A stretch of DNA of 64,000 nucleotides. Origin: Escherichia phage EP1. Positions 727-42,881 of this stretch are shown in pieces. How positions within the stretch are numbered: position 1 is the stretch's first letter; each line of letters opens with the position of its first letter. Both the position numbers and the translations under genes were made by a program. A model generated the notes under the pieces. The model worked only from the letters and a program-made list of their open reading frames with translations, was not told the origin of the DNA and did not search any database. Location of the stretch: the sequence record OR892555.1. One strand, 5' to 3'.

Positions 727-778
727 TTTTTGAATCTCCAGTTTAGGATTGATTTGATAAATCTCTTTATCTGGGGCT

Positions 779-807
779 ATCTTATCAGCCTGATAACCCC
801 ATGTAAA
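779..807 (-). promoter_or_regulatory. sigma70-like early promoter, cassette copy 1 (minus strand TTTACA-17 nt-TAAGAT), conserved leader to ATG at 726
   Basis: conserved -35 and TAnnAT -10 with conserved spacer length across copies while spacer sequence varies. Confidence 0.45.
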
Positions 808-816
808 GCAATTTAT

Positions 817-1329
817 TTAGATATCGAAAATATTCATCATTGAATCTTTCAAGGCTTCTAAACGTTCCATTACTTCAGATTCTGCGTCTGCGTTGCTTAC
901 TTCCTCTTTTAGTCTATCCTCTAAATCGTCGCCGTCACTATAGCACCAATCGAAAGCGTAGCCAAGATAAAAACTATCTAAAACCGTATTCCCGTTTGCA
1001 TCGACAACCTTTGCAGATAGGTTATATTCTGAAGCCTCTAAATCCCTTTCTAGTTCTTTCTGTAAGCTGATGTAAGCCTCTTGTGATGGATTTTCCCGAC
1101 CTTGTTTTGCATAGTCGCTAGAAAGCTGTTTAAGGCTATAGCGTAAAGGGATTGCATATTTAAACTCGTTACGCTGGAAGTTAGGATTCTTAATAGTTAC
1201 CCCGCCTTGATGGTTATCTGTAAATTCCCAATCACTGATGCTATGGCTTGCTTCATAGCAGTTAACAGCTTCATAGATGATAGAGAATTTTTCTTTTACA
1301 ACTTCAAAGGTGGCGTCTACAGTTCTCAT
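817..1329 (-). CDS. hypothetical early protein
   Basis: 170-aa ORF, ATG abuts cassette copy 2 leader (GGAG, 7-nt spacer). Confidence 0.55.
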   Translation of the reverse strand: MRTVDATFEVVKEKFSIIYEAVNCYEASHSISDWEFTDNHQGGVTIKNPNFQRNEFKYAIPLRYSLKQLSSDYAKQGRENPSQEAYISLQKELERDLEASEYNLSAKVVDANGNTVLDSFYLGYAFDWCYSDGDDLEDRLKEEVSNADAESEVMERLEALKDSMMNIFDI

Positions 1330-1379
1330 TTTGAATCTCCAGTTTAGGATTGATTTGGTAAAGCTCTTTATCTGGGGCT

Positions 1380-1409
1380 ATACTAGCAAACTTTATAACC
1401 CCATGTAAA
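1380..1409 (-). promoter_or_regulatory. sigma70-like early promoter, cassette copy 2 (TTTACA-18 nt-TAGTAT on minus strand)
   Basis: near-identical ~90 bp element to 1675-1760 and 2143-2230. Confidence 0.45.
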
Positions 1410-1416
1410 GCACTTT

Positions 1417-1674
1417 TTAGATTAAATTGCCAGTTAATGATAAGTGCATTTTGTAACCTTGTTTAGTGTAAACATTAGTTTTACCGATAGTCTTTACACC
1501 TTTAAAAAGATTGTAAGAGCTATGCTTTAAGGTTAATTGCTGGTCACACTTTACACCCCATCTTACAGCAGAATCTTTCCCGTTGTCAATCACTTTTCCG
1601 TCTAAATCTTTTGCCAGTAAACGAGCGTTATCACGAGTTTTTGCATTCACTACTACGTTTTTGATGATAGCCAT
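1417..1674 (-). CDS. hypothetical early protein
   Basis: 85-aa ORF with cassette leader and GGAG RBS. Confidence 0.5.
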   Translation of the reverse strand: MAIIKNVVVNAKTRDNARLLAKDLDGKVIDNGKDSAVRWGVKCDQQLTLKHSSYNLFKGVKTIGKTNVYTKQGYKMHLSLTGNLI

Positions 1675-1723
1675 TTTTGAATCTCCAGTTTAGGTTAGTG
1701 ATAAAATCTCTTTATCTGGGGCT

Positions 1724-1753
1724 ATACTAGCAAACTTTATAACCCCATGTAAA
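1724..1753 (-). promoter_or_regulatory. sigma70-like early promoter, cassette copy 3 (TTTACA-18 nt-TAGTAT)
   Basis: repeat copy; hexamers read on minus strand. Confidence 0.45.
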
Positions 1754-1761
1754 GCACTTTA

Positions 1762-2142
1762 TCAGTTAATTTTAAAGATAGTTACATAACCATCACTACC
1801 AATCATCTGAGAAACTCCAGCTTTCTCGACATTGTAACCCATTTTATCAAGATGGTAAATAGCATCTTCATAACCATATGCCGCGCCTTGATAGCGTCTC
1901 TTCTCACATTTTATCAAGGTTTTACCACGTCCAGCAAGTGCATTAATGATAGCTTTATCACCTGATAAACTACCGTCTAGCATAGTTGCGCGGTAATGGT
2001 TTATTTTGTTGCCATTCACATCATACTTAAAATTGTATGCGTGAACAACAATTATTTTACCTTTGAATTTTTCATCAAGTGTTTTCTCCAGTACATCACG
2101 AAAATTTTCTTTGCTGATGAACTTAGGTGCACGATATTTCAT
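1762..2142 (-). CDS. hypothetical early protein
   Basis: 126-aa ORF with cassette leader. Confidence 0.55.
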   Translation of the reverse strand: MKYRAPKFISKENFRDVLEKTLDEKFKGKIIVVHAYNFKYDVNGNKINHYRATMLDGSLSGDKAIINALAGRGKTLIKCEKRRYQGAAYGYEDAIYHLDKMGYNVEKAGVSQMIGSDGYVTIFKIN

Positions 2143-2193
2143 TTTGAATCTCCAGTTTAGGATTGATTTAGTAAAGCTCTTTATCTGGGGCTT

Positions 2194-2223
2194 ATGGTAT
2201 CAATCTTTTAAGCCCCTTGTAAA
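2194..2223 (-). promoter_or_regulatory. sigma70-like early promoter, cassette copy 4 (TTTACA-18 nt-TACCAT); perfect inverted repeat GGGGCTTA/TAAGCCCC spans it
   Basis: repeat copy; -10 differs in sequence but keeps TAnnAT and position. Confidence 0.45.
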
Positions 2224-2228
2224 GTACT

Positions 2229-2608: not shown

Positions 2609-2658
2609 TTTCAGATTCTCCAGTTTAGGAAGTGGGCTTGCTTGCCCGTCTGATGCAA

Positions 2659-2687
2659 ATACTAAATAACTTTGTTTTGCAGGTCAA
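2659..2687 (-). promoter_or_regulatory. sigma70-like early promoter, cassette copy 5 (TTGACC-17 nt-TAGTAT), GC hairpin leader at 2634-2647
   Basis: hexamers and spacing read directly on minus strand. Confidence 0.4.
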
Positions 2688-2779
2688 GCAAATTTTTAAA
2701 AATATTTTTAGGAATTGCCAGAGGAGAACGCGCACACGACTACCACAAAACATAGCACAAATCAAGAATTATTTTTCAG

Positions 2780-3042
2780 TTCTCTACAGATTTTTCTCTT
2801 GACTTTTGGGGAGAGGGGGAGTAAGAGGGGGAGAGGGGCAGGGCTGGCACTATCTACCTACCTGCACAATTCTAAAATGATTTTTCTTGCCCGACACTCG
2901 CCGGGTCTGCACGTTTTGAAAATGAAAAAGCTCTTTGGAGTCCACCTGCACAAATTGAAAATGAATTTTCCCTTTGGATTTCAAAATTTTCTCTACAGAT
3001 TTCTGTCCAGACTTTTACCTGCACAATTTTAAAATGAAAAAG
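2780..3042. repeat. ORF-free region with four copies of a ~20-25 bp motif (CCTGCACAAnTTnnAAAATGAA; 2861-2880, 2907-2930, 2945-2965, 3018-3042) and two copies of TTCTCTACAGATTT (2780-2795, 2989-3005)
   Basis: direct repeats at irregular spacing; no credible ORF on the transcribed strand. Confidence 0.6.
2808..2846 (+). repeat. polypurine G-rich tract (GGGGAGAGGGGGAGTAAGAGGGGGAGAGGGGCAGGG) with five G-runs
   Basis: read directly; stands out in an AT-rich genome. Confidence 0.6.
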
Positions 3043-3110
3043 CCCTCCTTACCTGAAAATTTTACCAGATAAGAAAGGCTTAGTCTATTGTGAATATGCT
3101 ACAGAGTTTC

Positions 3111-32575: not shown

Positions 32576-35275
32576 ATGGAAAACGTAGATTTTGAAAACT
32601 TGCACTTGGTAGGTGATACAGAAACTGATGGGTTACTCCTTGAGTTCACAAAAGCACATGTAATGGCATTTGCAGATTACAAAGATGATGGTGATGAACC
32701 TGCTGTGTGGGTATTCACCGATGAACCTATTCTTGGTCACAAATGCACTAAGTACATCAAAGGTGGTCTTCGTGAAGGTGTAGAGTTTGCTCTCAAGGCA
32801 AAGCGTCTCTGTATTCATAACGGTCTTGGCTACGACTGGTGGGTGTTCAATCACATTGCACCGGACTTATGGAACTTTGACAATCCGAAGTGTAAACCTT
32901 GGGGAGACTTCTTTCAGGATTCTCTTATTCAGTCTCGTGTTCAGTGGATGGATAGACCTACACCAAAAGGTTACAAAGGTGCGCATGGTTTGGCTGCATG
33001 GGGTGCTCGTGTTGGTGTTCGTAAACCAGAGATTGAAGAGTGGGGTGTTTGGAATGCTGACATTCTGAACCGTGTTGTTGAGGATATTCGAATCAACGCC
33101 AAAACTAAACGTGCTCTTGATAACGAATACCTGAAGTTGAAGAAGTGTGGTGTAGACACTTACGAAACCTACATGCGAGCTAAAGAAACATCTTTCTGGA
33201 TGAGTCAGCAAGCCATCAACGGTTGGAAAGCTGATATTGAACTTATGCAGTTCCATGTCAAAGAACTTGACAGATTGACTGATGAATTAGCTGCTGAAGT
33301 TGAGCCTCATCTACCACCGACTATTAAGACGAAAGGTAAAGTTACTGGTGAAGAGTTTGCAAGGGCTTGGAACGAGTATGTTGAGACATTTGGTAAAGCA
33401 GATGGTCTGAAGCGCATCACTAAGTATCCAAAAACTAAGTTCCGTCAGCAGGTTCGTAATGGTGAGATGCAGACTTACGCTATCAAACCTTTTGGTAAAC
33501 CAACTACCAAGATTTTCAACATTGAGAAGCGTAACTGCTACACTCCAACTAACACGGTTACTGGAGAAGAGTACAAAGAAGGCTTCGTGGCAATGAAAGA
33601 TGCTCGTGCAGTTTGTAACGAGTTGAATGCTGCGATTGATAAGAAGTGCAAAGACTGGAAACCAGTTAAGACCGTGAAGACTGTGAAGTACTACAATAAT
33701 CACGTAGTAAATCACTTTGAACTTGAGTCAAGTCGTTACACAGGTTTGATTGATGCACCTTATACACCAATTGAGTTCGAAGTTTCACGCATGACTCAGG
33801 TTGCGGTTGTGAAGGATTATCTGAAAACTCTTGGCTGGATTCCTGATGACTGGAACTACAAGAAAGACTCTGATGGTCGTCCGGTGAAGGTTTGTCGCTT
33901 CAAAGACAACAAGAAGATGATTCGTAAACATCCGAAATGGCAAGAGATGGTGGAACGTTGCGGATTGAACTATGTTGAACATGAAGGTGTACAGTATATC
34001 GAACACAACTGGTCTGTGAAGAAGTACACAGATTTGCTTGAGCCTTGCTTGATTCGTACTTCACCGAAACTGACTGAATCATCTTACGATACAATTGAAG
34101 GTGAACTTGGACAGAAGATTGCGAAGTACTACACTTTGATGCACCGACGCAGAACTATTGAGAACTCAAAGGATGATGAAAAAGGTTGGTTAAACCAGAT
34201 TCGTCCAGATGGTCGTTTGAGTGCTGGTGCAATGGTGTTTGGTACTTCAACTGGACGCATGACACAATACGGAATTGTGAACGTACCTTCTGGTGCTGCT
34301 GTTTACGGTGAACCAATGAGGGCAGTCTGGATTTGTGAAGAAGGAACAAACGTAGTTTCCGTTGACATGAACTCTGCACAGCTTGTTTTACTGTGTAACT
34401 TTATGGGTGATAAAGAGTTCACCAAAGCGGTAACTCAGGGTAAAGAAGAGATTGAGTTTATCCGTCAGGAAGATGGCAGATATTACTGCAAACACTTTGA
34501 CGAATACCTGAATCCAGAAGTTGATAAGTATCTGCGTTATGACTCTGAAAACGACTTGTACGTAGTTTACTCAGGCACTGATGCTCATACACTGAACAGT
34601 ATCTACTTCAGCTTGAACGAAGAACAAGATATCTTGACTTGTCGTATGACTCAGGATGAAAATCTTCTTCACGAAATTAGTAAAGGTCGTAAAAAAGCTA
34701 AGAATGGTATCTATGCGTTACTGTTCGGTGCTGGTGATGAAAAGTTTGCTAAAACGATTAAAGCTGCGACTACTCAGGAAGGTGCATTGACTAAACAGAC
34801 TTACTTTGTGCGCTTGCCGAAGATTAAGAAACTGTTAGATGACTTGGAAGCTGACTTTAAGGCAACTAAGAAAGCACTTGAAGAGGTGTTTGGTAAAACT
34901 GCTGCAATTGCTAAAGGTGGTTTTGTCAAGGTAGCTGGAGCATGGTTGTGGTGTAAGTCTCCACACAAACTGTTAAACTATTTGCTGATGGGTTCAGAAA
35001 GTCAGGTTCAAAATGAGGCAATTAACCTTGCTTGTCGTAGAGCCTATGACGAAGGGTTGATGAAATTGAATGGACGTAAGCCAGCTATCGGCGCTAGGCT
35101 TCTTCTGGCATACCACGATGAGAATAGTTGGGAATGTCCAGAGAGTATGACTCAAGAAGTTAAAGCTATTACTGACTGGATGTACGGACAGGCTTCTAAA
35201 AACCTTGGGCTAAGGAAAGAAACTATGGTAACAGGTACTGGTAAGGTTGGTAAGAGTTGGTTGGAAGTGCACTAA
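32576..35275 (+). CDS. DNA polymerase, family A, with 3'-5' exonuclease domain
   Basis: 899 aa; exo motif VGDTETDGL; polymerase motif A DMNSAQLVLL, motif B KNGIYALLFGAG, motif C YHDE. Confidence 0.9.
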   Translation: MENVDFENLHLVGDTETDGLLLEFTKAHVMAFADYKDDGDEPAVWVFTDEPILGHKCTKYIKGGLREGVEFALKAKRLCIHNGLGYDWWVFNHIAPDLWNFDNPKCKPWGDFFQDSLIQSRVQWMDRPTPKGYKGAHGLAAWGARVGVRKPEIEEWGVWNADILNRVVEDIRINAKTKRALDNEYLKLKKCGVDTYETYMRAKETSFWMSQQAINGWKADIELMQFHVKELDRLTDELAAEVEPHLPPTIKTKGKVTGEEFARAWNEYVETFGKADGLKRITKYPKTKFRQQVRNGEMQTYAIKPFGKPTTKIFNIEKRNCYTPTNTVTGEEYKEGFVAMKDARAVCNELNAAIDKKCKDWKPVKTVKTVKYYNNHVVNHFELESSRYTGLIDAPYTPIEFEVSRMTQVAVVKDYLKTLGWIPDDWNYKKDSDGRPVKVCRFKDNKKMIRKHPKWQEMVERCGLNYVEHEGVQYIEHNWSVKKYTDLLEPCLIRTSPKLTESSYDTIEGELGQKIAKYYTLMHRRRTIENSKDDEKGWLNQIRPDGRLSAGAMVFGTSTGRMTQYGIVNVPSGAAVYGEPMRAVWICEEGTNVVSVDMNSAQLVLLCNFMGDKEFTKAVTQGKEEIEFIRQEDGRYYCKHFDEYLNPEVDKYLRYDSENDLYVVYSGTDAHTLNSIYFSLNEEQDILTCRMTQDENLLHEISKGRKKAKNGIYALLFGAGDEKFAKTIKAATTQEGALTKQTYFVRLPKIKKLLDDLEADFKATKKALEEVFGKTAAIAKGGFVKVAGAWLWCKSPHKLLNYLLMGSESQVQNEAINLACRRAYDEGLMKLNGRKPAIGARLLLAYHDENSWECPESMTQEVKAITDWMYGQASKNLGLRKETMVTGTGKVGKSWLEVH

Positions 35276-35284
35276 GGTATTGAA

Positions 35285-35797
35285 ATGATTACAGAAATTC
35301 GATTAAAGGAGATTTTAAAGTATGACCCCGATACAGGGGTCTTTACTTGGAAATTCAGAGAAGGTAATGCAAACTTTAACTCCAGATTTGGAGGCAAGAG
35401 GGCTGGAAACTACAGAACAAATACTGATGGTCACAAATCTGTCCAATTGCTGATTGATGGAAGGAGCTACCAAGCAAATCGTTTAGTTATCTTGTATATG
35501 GATGGATACCTACCCGATAAATCTTTACAGGTTGACCACAAAAACTGTGATGGATGGGATAACAGGTATTTGAATTTGAGGGTTTGCACAGCTTCACAAA
35601 ACTCTTGCAATCGGTCTAAGAAGTCTCTATCAGGTTTACCAAAAGGTGTTCAGAAGATAAGGAAACGTTTTAGGGCAATGCTTCGTTTGCAAGGAAGGAA
35701 TTACCATCTTGGGATGTTTGACACGCCTGAAGAAGCCCACGAAGCTTACTGTGAAGCTGCTATAAAACTCCACGGAGATTTTGCAAAACTTAGTTGA
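35285..35797 (+). CDS. HNH homing endonuclease with AP2 DNA-binding domain
   Basis: VDHKNCDGWDNRYLNLRVCTASQN HNH core; C-terminal AP2-like segment. Confidence 0.75.
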   Translation: MITEIRLKEILKYDPDTGVFTWKFREGNANFNSRFGGKRAGNYRTNTDGHKSVQLLIDGRSYQANRLVILYMDGYLPDKSLQVDHKNCDGWDNRYLNLRVCTASQNSCNRSKKSLSGLPKGVQKIRKRFRAMLRLQGRNYHLGMFDTPEEAHEAYCEAAIKLHGDFAKLS

Positions 35798-35822
35798 CAA
35801 GGTGCTCATGGAAGAGTACCAT
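35794..35822 (+). promoter_or_regulatory. sigma70-like promoter (TTGACA-17 nt-TACCAT) for downstream small genes
   Basis: consensus -35, TAnnnT -10, GGAG RBS before ATG at 35850. Confidence 0.45.
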
Positions 35823-35849
35823 ATACTATATATTGTATAGGAGACTTGT

Positions 35850-36050
35850 ATGACTATTTCAGAAATTGAAGTTCAACTGCAATGTGCTGGATACTCTCAA
35901 AGTGAGATTGAGTCTATGTGCATCATCATTTGCAGTAGCCATAAGCACCTCAAGCTTTCTAATGAAAATCTTCGCAAGGTTGATATTTTTATTGCTGGAG
36001 GTAAGATTATCAAGGATAAGACAGGCTACCTTAAAGGTGAACGTCTATGA
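35850..36050 (+). CDS. hypothetical protein
   Basis: 66-aa ORF with RBS. Confidence 0.45.
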   Translation: MTISEIEVQLQCAGYSQSEIESMCIIICSSHKHLKLSNENLRKVDIFIAGGKIIKDKTGYLKGERL

Positions 36051-36256
36051 GCCATCGTGGAAGAACTCATCTCGCCATGATGCAAGGGGCTTCAAAAGAG
36101 ACTATCAAGAATCGGAAGAAAACTCTTTTTGACAGAATGAATAGACTCATTGATAATGCAAGCCTACCTAACTCTGAAAAGGTTTTCTTGAAAGGGAATC
36201 TGAAGAGTATCGCACAGGAACTTATTGACATTGAATTTTGGAGACACCAAAAATGA
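36047..36256 (+). CDS. hypothetical protein
   Basis: 69-aa ORF, start overlaps upstream stop. Confidence 0.45.
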   Translation: MSHRGRTHLAMMQGASKETIKNRKKTLFDRMNRLIDNASLPNSEKVFLKGNLKSIAQELIDIEFWRHQK

Positions 36257-36504
36257 GCAATAAAGAGCAAGAAGCTTTAGCAATCTTCAAGAGCGAAGAC
36301 AAATCAATAGCTTTTGTCTCAGAGGCTTGGTGCAGAGATTTGGGGTATGATTGGTATCTCTTCTTATGCGCTAAGAAAGATGTTAAACCAGTTGATGAAA
36401 CCCGATTCAAAGAACTGTATAATATCTGCCAAGAGGGTTATGAAGAACATTACGAAGGTTCTTTGAATCTTGTAAATTCAAAAGCTTCAGACTTATTTTA
36501 TTGA
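36253..36504 (+). CDS. hypothetical protein (start moved to internal ATG)
   Basis: GGAGA RBS before ATG at 36253. Confidence 0.45.
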   Translation: MSNKEQEALAIFKSEDKSIAFVSEAWCRDLGYDWYLFLCAKKDVKPVDETRFKELYNICQEGYEEHYEGSLNLVNSKASDLFY

Positions 36505-36514
36505 GAGGTTCAAA

Positions 36515-36760
36515 ATGTTAAAATTATTGATACCAGCTTTAGTATTCTTACTGGTGGGGTGCAACCCTTCTTATGAGAATAAGGATGCCTCTTACAGACT
36601 TCCTCCAGAAATGCAAGACTGCAAGATTTACAAGCTTAATGGTGATGCCATTAGCAAAGATGTTATTGTAGTTCGCTGCCCAAATTCTCAGACGACAACT
36701 TCTTACAAGTATGGTAAGAATAATCAGTCACACACCACAGTTTTTGATGGAGGATATTGA
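36515..36760 (+). CDS. putative lipoprotein
   Basis: signal peptide with LVGC lipobox. Confidence 0.5.
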   Translation: MLKLLIPALVFLLVGCNPSYENKDASYRLPPEMQDCKIYKLNGDAISKDVIVVRCPNSQTTTSYKYGKNNQSHTTVFDGGY

Positions 36761-36761
36761 T

Positions 36762-36968
36762 ATGCAGGTTCTGGTAAACTTTATCTATAAGTATGAAAAC
36801 ATCTTCAGCACTATGACTGTAGCTCAACGCAATCCGGTTATCCCACGAGAAGGGGAGACTGTTGAGATTAATGATTGGAACTACAGAGTTGAAGAGGTCA
36901 AGCATAAACTTAAAGATGGTTATGACCACCAAGTTGTAAATGTGTATTTAAAAGGTAAGTGGCAATGA
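36762..36968 (+). CDS. hypothetical protein (start moved to internal ATG)
   Basis: GGAGG RBS before ATG at 36762. Confidence 0.4.
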   Translation: MQVLVNFIYKYENIFSTMTVAQRNPVIPREGETVEINDWNYRVEEVKHKLKDGYDHQVVNVYLKGKWQ

Positions 36969-37059
36969 GAGTCTTACATATCATCTCTGAAGATTTTGGA
37001 GGGTGCTCTTGGCACTCATTTTTCACAAAAGGCTGTCTAGCTTGTGAGGCACGTAATAA

Positions 37060-38160
37060 ATGACAATTCTGTACAAACAAAATAAAGATGGTTCTTTCAA
37101 CGTCTGGTCATGTGTTGCTGTAGGTGATAAAGTCGTCACAACTTATGGTAAAGAAAATGGCAAGATGATGTTTGAAGAGTACACAGCAGAACCTAAGAAC
37201 ATCGGTAAGAAGAATGAGCGTAATGCTGAACAGCAAGCTCTCTTTGAAGTTGCTGCTAAGTACAAGAAGCAGGTTGACCGTAAAGGTTATGCTTATTCAA
37301 AATCTGAAGCAGAGAACACTGAAAAGGTTGGTGTACAACTCGCACAAGATGCTGCAAAGGTAAGCCATGCCAAGTATTTGAAGTTCCCTGCTGATGCTCA
37401 ACCTAAGCTTGATGGTGTTCGTTGCCGCATATCAAGAGATGTTGACTCAGTGAACTTCACAGCTTATTCCCGTGAAAATACTGTGTACAACGTACCTGAA
37501 GAGTTGATTCCAGATTTACTCATGATGCTTAAACTCCATAAAGATGTTGATGATTTTGACGGTGAGATTTATGCTCATGGTTGGGACTTGGAAGATATTG
37601 TATCTATGATTAAGAATGCTGACAATCCAGACCGTCACCTGCTTAAATTCTACTGGTATGATATCTGTGATAAAACTAAAACTTGGCCTGAGCGTCGTGG
37701 AATCATTGATAACTCACCAATTGTTGAACTCGGTGATGCTTGCAGAGTTGTGCCTGTTCAAACTATCCGTGTCAACTCTTGGGAAGAGTTCGACAAAGCC
37801 CATGATAATTGGGTTAAGCTGAAGTTTGAAGGGGCTATGTACCGTTCAATCTCTGAAGAATCTTTCTACGAGTGTAGTCACCGTTCATACTTCTTAATCA
37901 AGCATAAGAAGATGCACACTGAAGAGTTTAAAGTAACTGGTGTGAAGACTGATAAACGTGGTCATGGTAAGTTCGTTGTAGAAACTCTTCCTAACGTCTT
38001 TGTAGATGTTTCATGGAAAACTACCCATGATAAGAAACAGTATCTTGCTGAACATCCTGAAGAGTTTATCGGGAAGCCTTTGACGGTTCAGTTCCAGAAG
38101 ATGACTCGTAAGGGGTCTTTACAGTTCCCTGTTGGCCTCGTTATACGAGATTATGAATAA
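37060..38160 (+). CDS. ATP-dependent DNA ligase
   Basis: adenylation motif I KLDGVR (KxDG) with ligase-like downstream motifs. Confidence 0.8.
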   Translation: MTILYKQNKDGSFNVWSCVAVGDKVVTTYGKENGKMMFEEYTAEPKNIGKKNERNAEQQALFEVAAKYKKQVDRKGYAYSKSEAENTEKVGVQLAQDAAKVSHAKYLKFPADAQPKLDGVRCRISRDVDSVNFTAYSRENTVYNVPEELIPDLLMMLKLHKDVDDFDGEIYAHGWDLEDIVSMIKNADNPDRHLLKFYWYDICDKTKTWPERRGIIDNSPIVELGDACRVVPVQTIRVNSWEEFDKAHDNWVKLKFEGAMYRSISEESFYECSHRSYFLIKHKKMHTEEFKVTGVKTDKRGHGKFVVETLPNVFVDVSWKTTHDKKQYLAEHPEEFIGKPLTVQFQKMTRKGSLQFPVGLVIRDYE

Positions 38161-38166
38161 AAGTTG

Positions 38167-38194
38167 TTGACATACACTCTCCGGTAGATATACT
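38167..38194 (+). promoter_or_regulatory. strong sigma70-like promoter (TTGACA-16 nt-TATACT) inside a 7-bp inverted repeat CCGGTAG/CTACCGG
   Basis: near-consensus hexamers; GGAG RBS before ATG at 38245. Confidence 0.55.
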
Positions 38195-38244
38195 AGCAAT
38201 ATAAAATTTGATATAGGAACTACCGGATGAGTTAGGAGAAGAAA

Positions 38245-38625
38245 ATGAAAAAGATTATGGTAGGTGTCATTCTGGCAACTCTGAGTTTTGGTGCATCAGC
38301 TATGAAGATGCCTGAAGCAGACTTTAGCAAGGTCTCTATGGAGGCTTGTCAGATTGTTCGTAAAGTCGTAACAGATGCTGGAGAGTTGACTAAACCGTTA
38401 TCTTCTCCAACTGTAATGGAAATGTCTGACCGTATCACTGATTACAATTACCGTGTGATGGCAGACTACTACGAAGCTGTTTCTGATGCTATGGTCACTC
38501 AGGATGTTGACTTGCTTGATGACAAAGACATTGAGAAGGTTGAAGATACTAAGCGTGACATGATGGATGAAACTTTTAAAGGTGTTCATTATTTTGTTGA
38601 AAAGCGTACTTGTGTAGGTTTATGA
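38245..38625 (+). CDS. secreted/periplasmic hypothetical protein
   Basis: N-terminal signal peptide MKKIMVGVILATLSFGASA. Confidence 0.5.
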   Translation: MKKIMVGVILATLSFGASAMKMPEADFSKVSMEACQIVRKVVTDAGELTKPLSSPTVMEMSDRITDYNYRVMADYYEAVSDAMVTQDVDLLDDKDIEKVEDTKRDMMDETFKGVHYFVEKRTCVGL

Positions 38626-38626
38626 T

Positions 38627-38830
38627 ATGAAGAAGAATCATTGCAGAAAGAACTATGGAGAAGTGCTTGACGATGAAGGTTATGCAATCTTTCGAGTTTA
38701 CTGTGCAGATGACTCTGAAGTAGATAAAGCACTTGATGATTATATCAATGGTACTCGTGAAAACGTCAGAGCAACAAACATAGATTCATTGATTGACACT
38801 TCCAGAAAACGGAGGAAGAAAGATGAATGA
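38627..38830 (+). CDS. hypothetical protein
   Basis: 67-aa ORF. Confidence 0.4.
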   Translation: MKKNHCRKNYGEVLDDEGYAIFRVYCADDSEVDKALDDYINGTRENVRATNIDSLIDTSRKRRKKDE

Positions 38831-39122
38831 AGTCTTTGACCCTTACGCCCCACAAGATAAGTGGGAAGCCGATAGAGAGTATGAGATGGAAAGTTATATC
38901 TGTCCAATGGATGTAGACGAAATGAGAGAGTTCGTTGCATTCCGTTTTGAAAAAGAAATTGAGAAAAGAAAACTTTCTCAGGCACAAGTGGCAAAAATTT
39001 GTGATATCTCTCAAAGTCGTGTTTCCAACATTGTCAATGGTACTGGAAAGATTACCCTTGAATACATGTTGAAAGCTTGTGAAAAACTTGGTGTTAACTT
39101 CAACTTAAGGTTGTCAGATTAA
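38823..39122 (+). CDS. helix-turn-helix DNA-binding protein (XRE-like)
   Basis: LSQAQVAKICDISQSRVSNIVNG HTH motif; GGAGG RBS before ATG at 38823. Confidence 0.55.
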   Translation: MNEVFDPYAPQDKWEADREYEMESYICPMDVDEMREFVAFRFEKEIEKRKLSQAQVAKICDISQSRVSNIVNGTGKITLEYMLKACEKLGVNFNLRLSD

Positions 39123-39123
39123 T

Positions 39124-39483
39124 ATGAAACGTGAAAATGCAATCATCAAAGGTAACTTCGCAATTGGCTTCTACGGGAAACCTACTGAAGCTGAGAAGGT
39201 ATGGGGTCATGAGATTCTCGAAGAGATGATTCCAAAACTCCAAAAAGGAGAAATCAAGCATTCTGAAAAGAATCGTGTGAAAGGTTATATGGCAATTGGT
39301 TCAGCTATATCTAACATCAAACTTGAGACGACATGTGCAAAAGATGTTCGTAACTCGTTTATCAAAGAACTTTTCAATAACCTTGATGGTGTTGATGCTA
39401 CCGCTATCTGGCTTGATATTGATGGTGTTAAGTATACAACTTTCGTATTTAAAAACGAGGATATCAAATGTCTCTTCCCGTAA
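39124..39483 (+). CDS. hypothetical protein
   Basis: 119-aa ORF. Confidence 0.45.
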   Translation: MKRENAIIKGNFAIGFYGKPTEAEKVWGHEILEEMIPKLQKGEIKHSEKNRVKGYMAIGSAISNIKLETTCAKDVRNSFIKELFNNLDGVDATAIWLDIDGVKYTTFVFKNEDIKCLFP

Positions 39484-39968
39484 AAATTGACTTGTTCTTC
39501 GGATACAATCTGATGACAGGATGTATGCTCAGTCTTCCAAAGTCTCCTTATCGTACTGAGAAGGGTGCTGTGAAACGTGCTGCACACTACAATAATGACT
39601 TAGGTCGTTTGCAGACGATTTACAAGTGGCTTGAAGAAGACGGTCGCGTGAATGAGTACTTTCATCAGCTTCGTATGTCTAATGAAGAAAATAAGATGGG
39701 TTACGAAATGTTCCCACGTCTTTACAAAGTGACTTCACCAACTTCTCAAACTTGGAATGAGAAGTCTATTGAGGGTTACAAAAAGGTCACAATGTCTCCG
39801 TTTAGTAGTGGTGCAGAGTTTGAGAAGCTACGTGAGATAATTTATCAGACTGTTGCAAAGCGTGTTGCAAAGGGTCTTTCTTATAATGAAAAGATTGACT
39901 GGAACACTCAAAAGGTTATACAATTCTTTGCATACGATAATGACAAACAAACTTTTGTAGAGGTTTAA
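39468..39968 (+). CDS. hypothetical protein
   Basis: 166-aa ORF. Confidence 0.5.
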   Translation: MSLPVKIDLFFGYNLMTGCMLSLPKSPYRTEKGAVKRAAHYNNDLGRLQTIYKWLEEDGRVNEYFHQLRMSNEENKMGYEMFPRLYKVTSPTSQTWNEKSIEGYKKVTMSPFSSGAEFEKLREIIYQTVAKRVAKGLSYNEKIDWNTQKVIQFFAYDNDKQTFVEV

Positions 39969-39969
39969 A

Positions 39970-40488
39970 ATGAAGATTGGAAACAGCTTAACAGAGCCAG
40001 AAGCAATCCTGCTTAAGGGTGTTATCAAAGAACATCTGAAAAATCGTAGACTCCAAGAAGGTACAATCCTGATTGAGACAAACTACGAAGCCGGAACGAT
40101 TGAGTTTCTTGATGAAGATACTGGTGATGCACTTTGCCTTTTACCAACTCACCTCTTCACTACTGAGTTCCGAGATTCTAAATCAATCTCTGTGAAGCTG
40201 GTTCCAAGCATTGAGTTGTATGAAGGTATGCAATATCCACGTAGCTTCAAAGCTTTACTTAACATCTTCATAGATGACATTGTAGATTTAGTAAGGCCAG
40301 AAGCTGGTGAGTATGTAATCACTGCTGAGTGTAAGAATAGCAGCTACATCACTCTCGCTGGTAATCTTTCAACGATGAACTTCTTAGATTTCATCCCGAA
40401 ACACTTTGAAGACTTTCTTTCATCGTGTGGTGATGACCTTGATTTCATTGTAAAACTGGAACAAGAATATAAGGTGAATAAGAAATGA
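39970..40488 (+). CDS. hypothetical protein
   Basis: 172-aa ORF. Confidence 0.5.
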   Translation: MKIGNSLTEPEAILLKGVIKEHLKNRRLQEGTILIETNYEAGTIEFLDEDTGDALCLLPTHLFTTEFRDSKSISVKLVPSIELYEGMQYPRSFKALLNIFIDDIVDLVRPEAGEYVITAECKNSSYITLAGNLSTMNFLDFIPKHFEDFLSSCGDDLDFIVKLEQEYKVNKK

Positions 40489-40754
40489 AAATCTTTAAAG
40501 TTGAACACTGTTACATGCAGAGTGGTGAGCCAATTCGTTGTCCACATTGTGGTGGCACAGACTTCCAAGGTGAGGTTACAGATATCATCTCTGGTCATGT
40601 AGCAGAAGAGTATACTCGTTGCCGTGGTTGTATGAAGATTGTTTCATTTTGGGCTTATGGAAGTTATGAGCCACACCCACACATTATTTACCATCCAGTT
40701 AAAGTGGTTAAGAACGTCATCAACTGGTTTATCATCAAGGGGTTTTTCAAATGA
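40485..40754 (+). CDS. small zinc-ribbon protein
   Basis: CPHCGG ... CRGC. Confidence 0.45.
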   Translation: MKIFKVEHCYMQSGEPIRCPHCGGTDFQGEVTDIISGHVAEEYTRCRGCMKIVSFWAYGSYEPHPHIIYHPVKVVKNVINWFIIKGFFK

Positions 40755-41296
40755 TTCGTTTAGTATTTGCAAGTGGTCGTAAAGGTGAGTTTGGTACTCC
40801 TGATGGAATGCCTTGGGAACGTAACCGTGAAGATATGAAAGAGTTTAAAAAGCTGACTCAAAACCAGCTTGTACTCATGGGTAATGAAACTTTCAAAACT
40901 CTTGGACGTAAACCTTTACCAAATCGTGAGAACATGATTCTGACAAACAACCTCCCATATTACGGTATAGACTTTGATAATGATGGCTTTGTCTTTGCAA
41001 AGGTTGACCCAGATTCTTTCGGTGCATTCTTGAAGAAGATTGACAGCCAGATTGATGAAAACGTATGTGTGATTGGTGGTGCAAACATCTTGAAAGCAGC
41101 TTTACCGTTTGCTGATGAAGTTTACCACACAGTTATCTATGAAATTACTAAAGAGCCAACTGTGTATCTTCCTGAAGAGGGATTCTTTGATTATTTACAC
41201 GAACCTGAACTCTTTGCTAGAATACAGGCTAAACCTCTGGATGACAAATCTGGGGTTGTAAATTTCTATGTTCCACAAGTAAGAGGACGTTTCTGA
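40751..41296 (+). CDS. dihydrofolate reductase
   Basis: DHFR-like GMPWERNREDMKEFKKLT...LVLMGNETFKTLG and VIGGANI; sits directly upstream of thyA. Confidence 0.75.
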   Translation: MIRLVFASGRKGEFGTPDGMPWERNREDMKEFKKLTQNQLVLMGNETFKTLGRKPLPNRENMILTNNLPYYGIDFDNDGFVFAKVDPDSFGAFLKKIDSQIDENVCVIGGANILKAALPFADEVYHTVIYEITKEPTVYLPEEGFFDYLHEPELFARIQAKPLDDKSGVVNFYVPQVRGRF

Positions 41297-41297
41297 T

Positions 41298-42194
41298 ATG
41301 TCACAAGCAGATGTAAGCTACAAAAATATCCTGAACCATGTTTTAACAGTTGGTGAGCAGCGTAAAACCCGAACTGGTTCTGTAATTTCAACGTTCTCAC
41401 CTCCAGAGTTTCGTTTTGATATGCGTACTGGTTTCCCTTTACTGACCTCTAAACAGGTTCTGACAAGACAAGTTATCGGGGAAGCTTTATGGTTCTTGAA
41501 CGGTGAGAATAAACTTGGTCATCTTCGCTATCGTACTTGGGGAGAAAACGATGGGGAACGTTGGACAATCTGGACAAATGACTTTGAACGCTGGCTTAAA
41601 ACAACATATGCAAGCGAGCAAGACTGGTTAGAGGATGCAGGTGGACGAATCTACGGTGTTCAGTGGAGAGCCTCAGAAGGTCATGGTGGCGTTACAGTTG
41701 ACCAGTTAGACAATCTGATTACCAAGATGAAAAAGTCTCCTACAGACCGTTACATGCTGGTTAACGCTTGGAATGCTGCTGATATCTCAGCTAATGCAAT
41801 GGCTTTACCACCTTGTCATGTGCTTTTCCAGATTTACATCTCGAATACTGGTGAAGTGGATTTAAAATGGTATCAACGTTCTGTAGACAGTTTCTTAGGT
41901 TTGCCATTTAACATTGCGTCTTATGGTTTCATCTTAGAAGTGCTTTGCAAGATGACTGGCTATACACCTCGTTATCTGATTGGTACTTTTGGTGACACTC
42001 AGATTTATCAGAACCATATGAGTCAGGTATTCCAGCTTTTAGGTAATGAAGAGTTTCCTGCACCGAAGTTTGAGATTGTTCAAGATTTGAAATGTCTGGA
42101 TGACCTAAAACATATGACTGCAAGTGACTTTATCGGTGGTTTCAAAGACTATCGACATGCAGGGAAGATTGAAGCTCCCTTGTCAGTAGGTTGA
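41298..42194 (+). CDS. thyA: thymidylate synthase
   Basis: active-site ALPPCHVLFQIY and WYQRSVDSFLGLPFNIASY match the ThyA signature. Confidence 0.9.
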   Translation: MSQADVSYKNILNHVLTVGEQRKTRTGSVISTFSPPEFRFDMRTGFPLLTSKQVLTRQVIGEALWFLNGENKLGHLRYRTWGENDGERWTIWTNDFERWLKTTYASEQDWLEDAGGRIYGVQWRASEGHGGVTVDQLDNLITKMKKSPTDRYMLVNAWNAADISANAMALPPCHVLFQIYISNTGEVDLKWYQRSVDSFLGLPFNIASYGFILEVLCKMTGYTPRYLIGTFGDTQIYQNHMSQVFQLLGNEEFPAPKFEIVQDLKCLDDLKHMTASDFIGGFKDYRHAGKIEAPLSVG

Positions 42195-42200
42195 TAGATA

Positions 42201-42240
42201 CAAAAAAGGCTCCTTTTTACGGGAGCCTTAAACTTATTTT
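42201..42240. terminator. bidirectional rho-independent terminator at the convergence of plus and minus blocks (A-run, GGCTCC-loop-GGAGCC, T-run)
   Basis: hairpin flanked by A-tract and T-tract between thyA stop and the converging minus-strand gene. Confidence 0.6.
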
Positions 42241-42608
42241 TTCTTAGCATTTTGAGTGTTCTGTTCAGTGATTGCTTGCAAAGCTGATACAGATTGTGCT
42301 AGGTTGTTAACACTGTCAGAGAATTTATCAAGGGTCTTGGTCAACTTGGCGTTTTCACCCTTTACGTTCTCTAGCTGAACCTTCTGGTTCTCCATGCCTA
42401 ATTGCAGGAGTTTCATGTCAGACTGTAAATCACGAATAGCTGAATAGTTGCTTTTGTTGTAACTATCTAGCTGCTGTAACTTTGTCGAAACGGAAACTTC
42501 CTGCTTCCCACTAGACACCTGCATTGTAGTGTACATACCAATTACACTGAAGATACCCACAACAATTGCACCAATGTTATTTTTGAAAGCATCCTCTAAC
42601 CACTTCAT
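42234..42608 (-). CDS. membrane-anchored coiled-coil protein
   Basis: N-terminal TM IGAIVVGIFSVIGMY then heptad-like Q/L/N-rich region. Confidence 0.45.
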   Translation of the reverse strand: MKWLEDAFKNNIGAIVVGIFSVIGMYTTMQVSSGKQEVSVSTKLQQLDSYNKSNYSAIRDLQSDMKLLQLGMENQKVQLENVKGENAKLTKTLDKFSDSVNNLAQSVSALQAITEQNTQNAKKK

Positions 42609-42802: not shown

Positions 42803-42881
42803 TATGTCACCTCATCAGCCAAGATGGTGAGAATACCTATGAAAATATTAACACCGTCTTAACATTTAGTCAACAAATTGA

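Follow-up and report, generated by a model that had tools for sequence, protein, structure and literature searches.

Results

The locus and its promoter

We analyzed a 64,000-nucleotide stretch of DNA from Escherichia phage EP1 (OR892555.1; hereafter the window, numbered from its first letter), focusing on a sigma70-type promoter sequence and the inverted repeat that overlaps it in the 84-nt intergenic region (38161-38244) between an ATP-dependent DNA ligase gene (37060-38160, + strand) and ORF126 (38245-38625, +). A 3-kb query around this element returned 260 phage records, the top matches being the Escherichia phages mistaenkt and EcSzw-2 at 94-95% identity. Their genus is Suspvirus, in the subfamily Ounavirinae (Felix O1-like myoviruses), and the window was assigned there. 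The element lies in a rightward cluster of replication and nucleotide-metabolism genes, in the order DNA polymerase (32576-35275), HNH endonuclease, small open reading frames (ORFs), ligase, the 84-nt gap, ORF126, ORF67, a helix-turn-helix (HTH) gene, four ORFs of unknown function, dihydrofolate reductase (DHFR) and thymidylate synthase (thyA).

A first-pass annotation of this DNA had placed a TTGACA-16 nt-TATACT promoter at 38167-38194, ahead of an operon that begins with a signal-peptide protein and includes an XRE-like HTH protein, and both the promoter and this arrangement are supported. The -35 hexamer TTGACA (38167-38172, +) and the -10 hexamer TATACT (38189-38194, +) together score 11/12, are intergenic and point toward ORF126. 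An AT-rich tract (38153-38166, +) that includes the ligase stop codon TAA (38158-38160) lies upstream of the -35, and the geometry of sigma70 promoters predicts a transcription start ~7 nt past the -10, at 38199-38202 (+). The Shine-Dalgarno sequence of ORF126, AGGAG, can be read directly at 38234-38238 (+). Seven sites scoring at least 11/12 were found on the two strands of the window, compared to 1.55 ± 1.3 in dinucleotide shuffles. The promoter had been called the strongest sigma70-like one in the window, and it is indeed among the best, on a par with 8584(-) and 11798(-), both intergenic as well, and with others.

The same junction was then collected from GenBank phages, IMG/VR and metagenome contigs. 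The hexamers and their 16-nt spacing were unchanged while the spacer itself varied in 9 sequences from 4 lineages, plus the promoter P1 of Felixounavirus, and the block AAAGTTGTTGACA-16 nt-TATACT was kept at the junction in every relative collected. Conservation across lineages starts at AAAGTTG (38160), 7-8 nt upstream of the -35, and the sequence before AAAGTTGTTGACA differs; conservation starting only this far upstream is expected of a promoter. Conserved in all five lineages, the element has the look of a real host sigma70-type promoter with a predicted start.

An inverted repeat that begins inside the promoter spacer

The first-pass annotation described a 7-bp repeat, CCGGTAG (38181-38187) and CTACCGG (38220-38226), bracketing the promoter. 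These 7-mers are present, but the perfect match is actually 8 bp, formed by TCCGGTAG (38180-38187, +) and CTACCGGA (38220-38227, +) with 32 nt between the arms, and it does not bracket the promoter, as the left arm sits within the 16-nt spacer. Relative to the predicted start, the 5' arm would occupy positions ~-21 to -14, and the 3' arm, in the 5' untranslated region, positions ~+20 to +27. With one bulged T, the repeat extends to 12 bp through ACTC (38176-38179) and GAGT (38229-38232), so that the extended arms span 38176-38187 and 38220-38232 and a single nucleotide separates the extended helix from the Shine-Dalgarno. The arms enclose the -10, the predicted start and an AT-rich leader and leave the -35 outside. 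This leader, AATATAAAATTTGATATAGGAA (38198-38219, +), is conserved, holds a quasi-palindrome (38199-38214) and can form an upper hairpin.

Judged from the window alone, the repeat is at chance level. There are 45 perfect repeats in the window that are 8 bp or longer and have loops no larger than 45 nt, 7-mer repeat seeds number 242 compared to 252 ± 20 in shuffles, and a position-constrained shuffle gave P ~0.02 for this repeat. Rfam searches found no family match in 35500-42500 and none in two relatives.

Co-variation of the arms among relatives

Comparison of the collected junctions showed that the 3' half of the spacer is complementary, in every lineage, to a segment ~25-30 nt downstream of the -10, while the spacers are otherwise wholly different. 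The 5' and 3' arms are TCCGGTAG(TT) and (AA)CTACCGGA in the window type, CCTGACGGGT and ACCCGTCAGG in Mooglevirus (Mordin), TAGTGGGT and ACCCACTA in L132 and ESh22, AAACATAGCAAGT (also written (AAA)CATAGCAAGT) and ACTTGCTATGTTT in L130, and TGGTGAGTA and TACTCACCA in Felixounavirus P1. Five unrelated arm sequences therefore occupy one position, all of them pairing, with no gradual drift between them. Shuffle tests for the individual lineages gave P values of 0.02, 0.00065, 0.021, <5e-5 and 0.0036, with a product of ~5e-14. Pattern scans of IMG/VR, metagenomes and further GenBank relatives found no arm type beyond the five.

In an alignment (A4) anchored on the -10 and the pairing partner, which makes its counts lean toward structure, 96% of cells were paired compared to 76 ± 2.4% in column shuffles and 24-52% in slid registers, both sides had changed in 9/10 pairs, and the co-variation score was 0.756 versus 0.354. 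Stepwise compensatory change was also seen within the Mooglevirus type, with C-G in Mordin, C.A in ESh19 and L160, and T-A in HP1. The loop is conserved in sequence across lineages (TATACT ... ATATA ... TATAGGAAC), and the centers of the arms are 33-45 bp apart. Arms that co-vary around a conserved loop indicate selection for pairing rather than for a sequence read by a protein.

These comparisons bear on another account of the repeat, that AT-rich intergenic DNA contains it by chance or as a neutral feature. The 45 comparable repeats in the window and the seed counts equal to those of shuffles fit this account, but retention of pairing in five lineages with different sequences (P product as above), together with the stepwise compensatory change, makes it scarcely credible.

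Predicted folding of read-through RNA

Since the 5' arm precedes the predicted start, RNA initiated at the promoter would not contain it, and the ligase gene would be the source of read-through RNA that contains both arms. Folding of six variants of this RNA predicted a two-tier hairpin in 6/6, in which an internal loop, formed by the remainder of the -10, separates a lower stem of 8-14 bp from an upper AU-rich hairpin. Predicted free energies ranged from -17 to -30 kcal/mol; the z-score was -0.85 for the L132 type and between -3.2 and -5.3 for the other five variants. Between the helix and the Shine-Dalgarno downstream of it lie 0-7 nt, and in all lineages the extended helix comes within 0-1 nt of the first base of the Shine-Dalgarno.

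An intrinsic (Rho-independent) terminator was considered and rejected, as the loop is large (24-32 nt) and the 3' arm lacks a U tract behind it, the flanking sequences there being TGAGTTAGG, AACCTTGG, GTTAGTTTGG and GCATCAC. The terminator scan did not report the promoter stem at 38180-38227, which together with the missing U tract makes canonical intrinsic termination unlikely.

The main rival to insulation or processing of read-through RNA is translational gating of the type known from T4 genes e, soc, 49 and I-TevI, in which the read-through hairpin would block ribosomes on ORF126 and only promoter-initiated RNA would be translated. The closeness of the extended helix to the Shine-Dalgarno in all lineages fits this idea, as does a second such element in the window, 42873(-) (described below), which precedes the holin cassette and so recalls T4 lysozyme. 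However, the Shine-Dalgarno and AUG are outside the helix, and the accessibility of the Shine-Dalgarno shifts oppositely among lineages: in the comparison of P1-initiated with read-through RNA, its predicted unpaired probability goes from 0.27 to 0.81 in the window and from 0.58 to 0.25 in L130, and is unchanged in Mordin. Across seven sequences, the unpaired probability of the Shine-Dalgarno and AUG showed no consistent direction between the two RNAs. The embedded promoter is moreover of sigma70 consensus (early type) and not late, so the temporal logic of T4 does not carry over. We consider translational gating unlikely, if still the strongest of the competing explanations.

The HTH protein and the operator question

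The sequences fit both proteins that the first-pass annotation had named. ORF126 begins with a Sec-type N-terminus (MKK, hydrophobic core, GASA), and from this sequence it is predicted to be Sec-exported and is probably periplasmic; it belongs to phrog_4332, is of unknown function and has two invariant cysteines, Cys35 and Cys123. A single-sequence AlphaFold model was of low confidence (pLDDT 49.7). The 99-aa protein encoded at 38823-39122 (+) matches HTH_3 (PF01381, E = 6.5e-12), carries a conserved acidic N-terminal extension, and has the antitoxin HigA2 as the most similar solved structure (E = 0.0017).

The proposal that this XRE-type protein autoregulates through the repeat has several points in its favor. 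As in XRE/Cro repressor-operator systems, the operon has an HTH_3 gene behind a promoter overlapped by an inverted repeat; the HTH_3 protein is called a repressor or regulator in some records; and the left arm overlaps the spacer. The comparison among phages speaks against it. The HTH proteins are 62-100% identical, and the region LSQxQVA..C.ISQ[S/A]RVSNI is invariant except for one S/A position, whereas Mordin, L132, L130 and Felixounavirus have wholly different arms. The recognition helix (ISQ[S/A]RVSNI) does not differ between the window and Mordin, and their arms share no more bases than expected by chance. With an invariant helix and unrelated arms, in contrast to XRE/Cro systems, the repeat is hardly a sequence-specific operator of the HTH protein, and half-sites whose centers range from 33 to 45 bp apart are atypical and fit no single dimer geometry. 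We therefore regard the operator reading as very improbable. The AT-rich quasi-palindrome at 38199-38214 in the loop would be a better operator candidate, and is the sole alternative one we can offer for this protein. This is a weak idea, as only two copies of the quasi-palindrome are present in the window (35821 and 38199) and their half-site spacings differ. The motif ATATA..TATAGGA likewise has a single other copy in the window, at 35821-35842, behind the promoter at 35794.

A broader possibility is that the arms work in DNA, as half-sites of a co-evolving dimeric, looping or structure-specific protein, or as a cruciform that modulates the promoter. The repeat is symmetric, both strands fold equally well, the wobble evidence for RNA is thin, and a protein bound to the left arm, in the spacer, would block RNA polymerase. 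Against this stand the five unrelated arm sequences without gradual drift and the variable 33-45 bp spacing, and no neighboring DNA-binding protein varies with the arms, given that the HTH helix is invariant and ORF126 is predicted to be exported. Cruciform extrusion is also unfavorable for arms of 8-13 bp that are 24-32 nt apart. A DNA-level element is thus quite improbable in our estimate, less so than an HTH operator.

The remainder of the transcription unit

ORF67 (38627-38830, +; phrog_4473) is of unknown function, has a basic C-terminal tail (RKRRKK) and overlaps the HTH gene by 8 nt. Together, ORF67 and the HTH gene (38627-39122) have a toxin-antitoxin-like or decoy-like look in a lytic phage. 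The rest of the unit (39124-42194, +) contains the four ORFs of unknown function followed by DHFR (40751-41296) and thyA (41298-42194), and is closed by a bidirectional terminator-like hairpin at 42206-42229; a terminator scan of 38245-42194 found no terminator-like site ahead of it. In Felix O1, RT-PCR placed the homologous genes in the 25-min class, with no finer placement (PMC3185647).

Variation at the ligase-ORF126 junction

The junction between ligase and ORF126 is an indel hot spot with four arrangements in relatives: direct, with a small ORF, with non-coding repeats, or with two extra ORFs. It is bounded by two promoters, P1 and P2, and in Felixounavirus relatives P2 has the same TTGACA-TATACT distance, given as 23 nt, as the promoter at 35794 in the window.

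Relatives in Felixounavirus, some Mooglevirus and SUSP1/2 carry 200-600 bp of non-coding DNA between P1 and P2 (L003, 1640-1800; L165, 1480-1810 and 2850-3230; L133-L155, upstream of position 1500). This DNA consists of GGT-periodic G/T-rich repeats and conserved hairpin units rich in G.U pairs, such as AUCACUUAAGAGUCUUCUAAGAGGGUUUUUAAGUGAU, and had no Rfam match in the relatives. It could represent a structured non-coding RNA or an R-loop-prone, origin-like region. The window itself has ~500 bp without a convincing gene at 2610-3110, containing a G-rich tract, GGGGAGAGGGGGAGTAAGAGGGGGAGAGGGGCAGGG (~2808-2843), and three copies of ACCTGCACAAnTTnnAAAATGA (~2860, 2946 and 3018).

Similar elements elsewhere

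In the window, the stems that overlap promoter-like sites are longer at intergenic sites than at sites located elsewhere (mean 8.35 versus 6.9, Mann-Whitney P = 1.6e-5), a comparison that includes four copies of a single repeat and some stems that are terminators. Several other intergenic promoters have hairpins in the spacer or across the -10. The promoter-like site at 42873(-) (TTGACT-17-TAATAT; 42803-42881, - strand) lies in front of the lysis cassette, ahead of a 65-aa ORF and the holin, and its -10 and start fall in the loop of a 9-10 bp stem, AAGA(C/T)GGTG ... CACCATCTT. In all ten relatives compared this stem is conserved and perfectly paired, with the window carrying a C.A mismatch, and one position alternates between C-G and U.G on the sense strand.

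Four copies of a ~60-bp intergenic repeat (727-816, 1330-1416, 1675-1761 and 2143-2228, - strand) each have a TTTACA -35 and a GGGGTTAT/ATAGCCCC stem that spans the spacer and -10, with CTTTA/TAAAG as an outer stem. They correspond to the 57-bp direct repeats that the Felix O1 genome paper lists without interpretation. A paralogous promoter at 35794-35849 (+) has TTGACA followed by TATACT 22 nt from the -35, with TACCAT at 17 nt. Its spacer hairpin GGTGCTC/GAGTACC is conserved, with a G.T pair kept in all lineages, and its leader ATATATTGTATAGGAG resembles the leader of the 38167 promoter.

A perfect 12-bp inverted repeat (36404-36415 and 36458-36469), which is far beyond chance, encloses a TATAAT at 36418-36423 (ATGAAA-17-TATAAT). 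It lies within the 3' end of an ORF (36253-36504), upstream of a lipoprotein-like ORF (36515-36760, lipobox LVGC), and is conserved in the three available relatives, giving no co-variation information.

Two unrelated phage contigs from IMG/VR have the same -35/-10 pattern. In one (L006), the spacer sequence TTCCTTTC pairs with GAAAGGAA at the ribosome-binding site, and the other (L109) has the spacer-leader pair ACTATGCG and CGCATAGT. These sequences hint that spacer-encoded 5' strands are perhaps more widespread.

Discussion

A promoter nested in a stem that may act on read-through RNA

We propose that the element is a sigma70 promoter nested in a stem whose pairing is under selection and which acts on read-through RNA, insulating or processing it, and we rate the chance that this whole reading is right as about even. 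A host-sigma70 internal promoter would drive an accessory operon extending from ORF126 to thyA. Because the 5' strand is encoded in the spacer, promoter-initiated RNA would lack it and would have an open, AU-rich leader, and the two-tier hairpin would form only in RNA entering from the ligase gene. Most likely, the stem would then be an insulator between two transcription units, acting on read-through RNA by attenuation, by endonucleolytic processing or by protecting the ligase message at its 3' end. Such an insulator role is the one proposed for promoter-early stem-loop (PeSL) cassettes of T4-type phages.

Several observations weigh against this proposal. There are five independent arm types only, and the anchoring of A4 biases its counts toward structure. 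RNAalifold found no consensus structure in an unanchored MAFFT alignment of nine elements, because the register shifts by 1 nt between lineages, and the wobbles at the stem ends are equivocal (two U.G versus one C.A). Predicted folding energies are equal on the + and - strands and so do not separate a role in RNA from one in DNA, and the 24-32-nt loop is not followed by a U tract. Finally, a search of the searchable literature found no Ounavirinae transcriptome, mapped start site, RNA ends, or description of a promoter/stem-loop.

Comparison with known phage elements

The element would work like both PeSLs and T4 gene e-type hairpins, and we file it as a strict member of neither. PeSLs were described in the T4-type phages RB49/phi1, PST and nt-1 (Arbiol et al. 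2010, PMC2839356; Comeau et al. 2014, PMC4122927) as intergenic cassettes in which a near-consensus sigma70 promoter is preceded by an AT-rich tract and followed by a ribosome-binding site, with a stem-loop in the spacer or spanning a hexamer. Their stem-loops attenuate transcription coming from upstream, and the cassettes border regions rich in indels (PMC2839356, PMC4122927). The element studied here resembles them in its short intergenic layout: a sigma70 promoter close to consensus, AT-rich DNA that includes the stop codon of the upstream gene, a stem-loop overlapping the spacer or -10 (here with the 5' arm in the spacer and the -10 in the loop), and, at the 3' end, a Shine-Dalgarno and start codon. 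As with PeSLs, the stem would be able to act only on RNA from upstream, and the cassettes flank a hyperplastic, indel-rich junction where ORFs are gained and lost. It differs from them in belonging to Ounavirinae, in its 24-32-nt loop enclosing the -10 and the predicted start, whereas PeSLs are compact G(n)-loop-C(n) hairpins, in arms that are lineage-specific rather than a shared motif, and in the lack of a U-rich tail after the stem. The other promoter and stem composites in the window (the four ~60-bp repeats at 727-2228(-), 8584(-), 11020(-), 17250(-), 35794(+) and 42873(-)) have no common stem motif.

In T4, the late promoters of genes e (lysozyme), soc, 49 and I-TevI are embedded in a hairpin (McPheeters et al. 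1986; reviewed in PMC3014915), and only the longer, upstream-initiated transcripts are structured and untranslated (PMC3014915). In both systems the DNA that contains the promoter also encodes the 5' strand, so that the promoter's own transcripts would be free of the structure, given the start predicted here. The T4 3' strand, however, sequesters the Shine-Dalgarno and/or AUG, whereas here it stops 0-7 nt upstream and does not consistently lower accessibility, and the T4 promoters are gp55-dependent late promoters rather than of sigma70 consensus. A strict T4 gene e-type masking hairpin was rejected for these reasons, namely a ribosome-binding site outside the helix and inconsistent changes in accessibility.

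T7-type RNase III processing signals are two-tier hairpins between early genes that lie downstream of promoters and are thus carried by all transcripts. The predicted fold shares with them a lower stem, an asymmetric internal loop, an upper hairpin and an intercistronic location, most clearly in the Mordin type; it differs in that its upper stem is short, AU-only and not conserved in register.

Implications for Felix O1-like phages

More generally, Ounavirinae could use promoter-in-hairpin cassettes to label mRNA by its origin, with a structured read-through form and an unstructured promoter-initiated form that would differ in processing, stability or translation, at least in the ORF126 operon and the lysis cassette (42873-). 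We regard this generalization as doubtful at present, but if true, the T4 gene e principle would apply also to sigma70 promoters and to hairpins that leave the ribosome-binding site unmasked. The results also give reason for caution in annotating phage genomes, as an inverted repeat at a promoter need not be an operator.

Felix O1-like phages are widely used in typing and biocontrol of Salmonella and E. coli, and the Felix O1 genome paper states that the timing and insulation of their transcription units are unknown. The co-varying stem around an internal promoter provides a concrete, mutable element for testing how read-through and promoter-initiated messages are distinguished in these phages. 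Its presence also suggests that PeSL-like cassettes, a kind of element linked to the modular shuffling of genes, occur beyond the T4-type phages.

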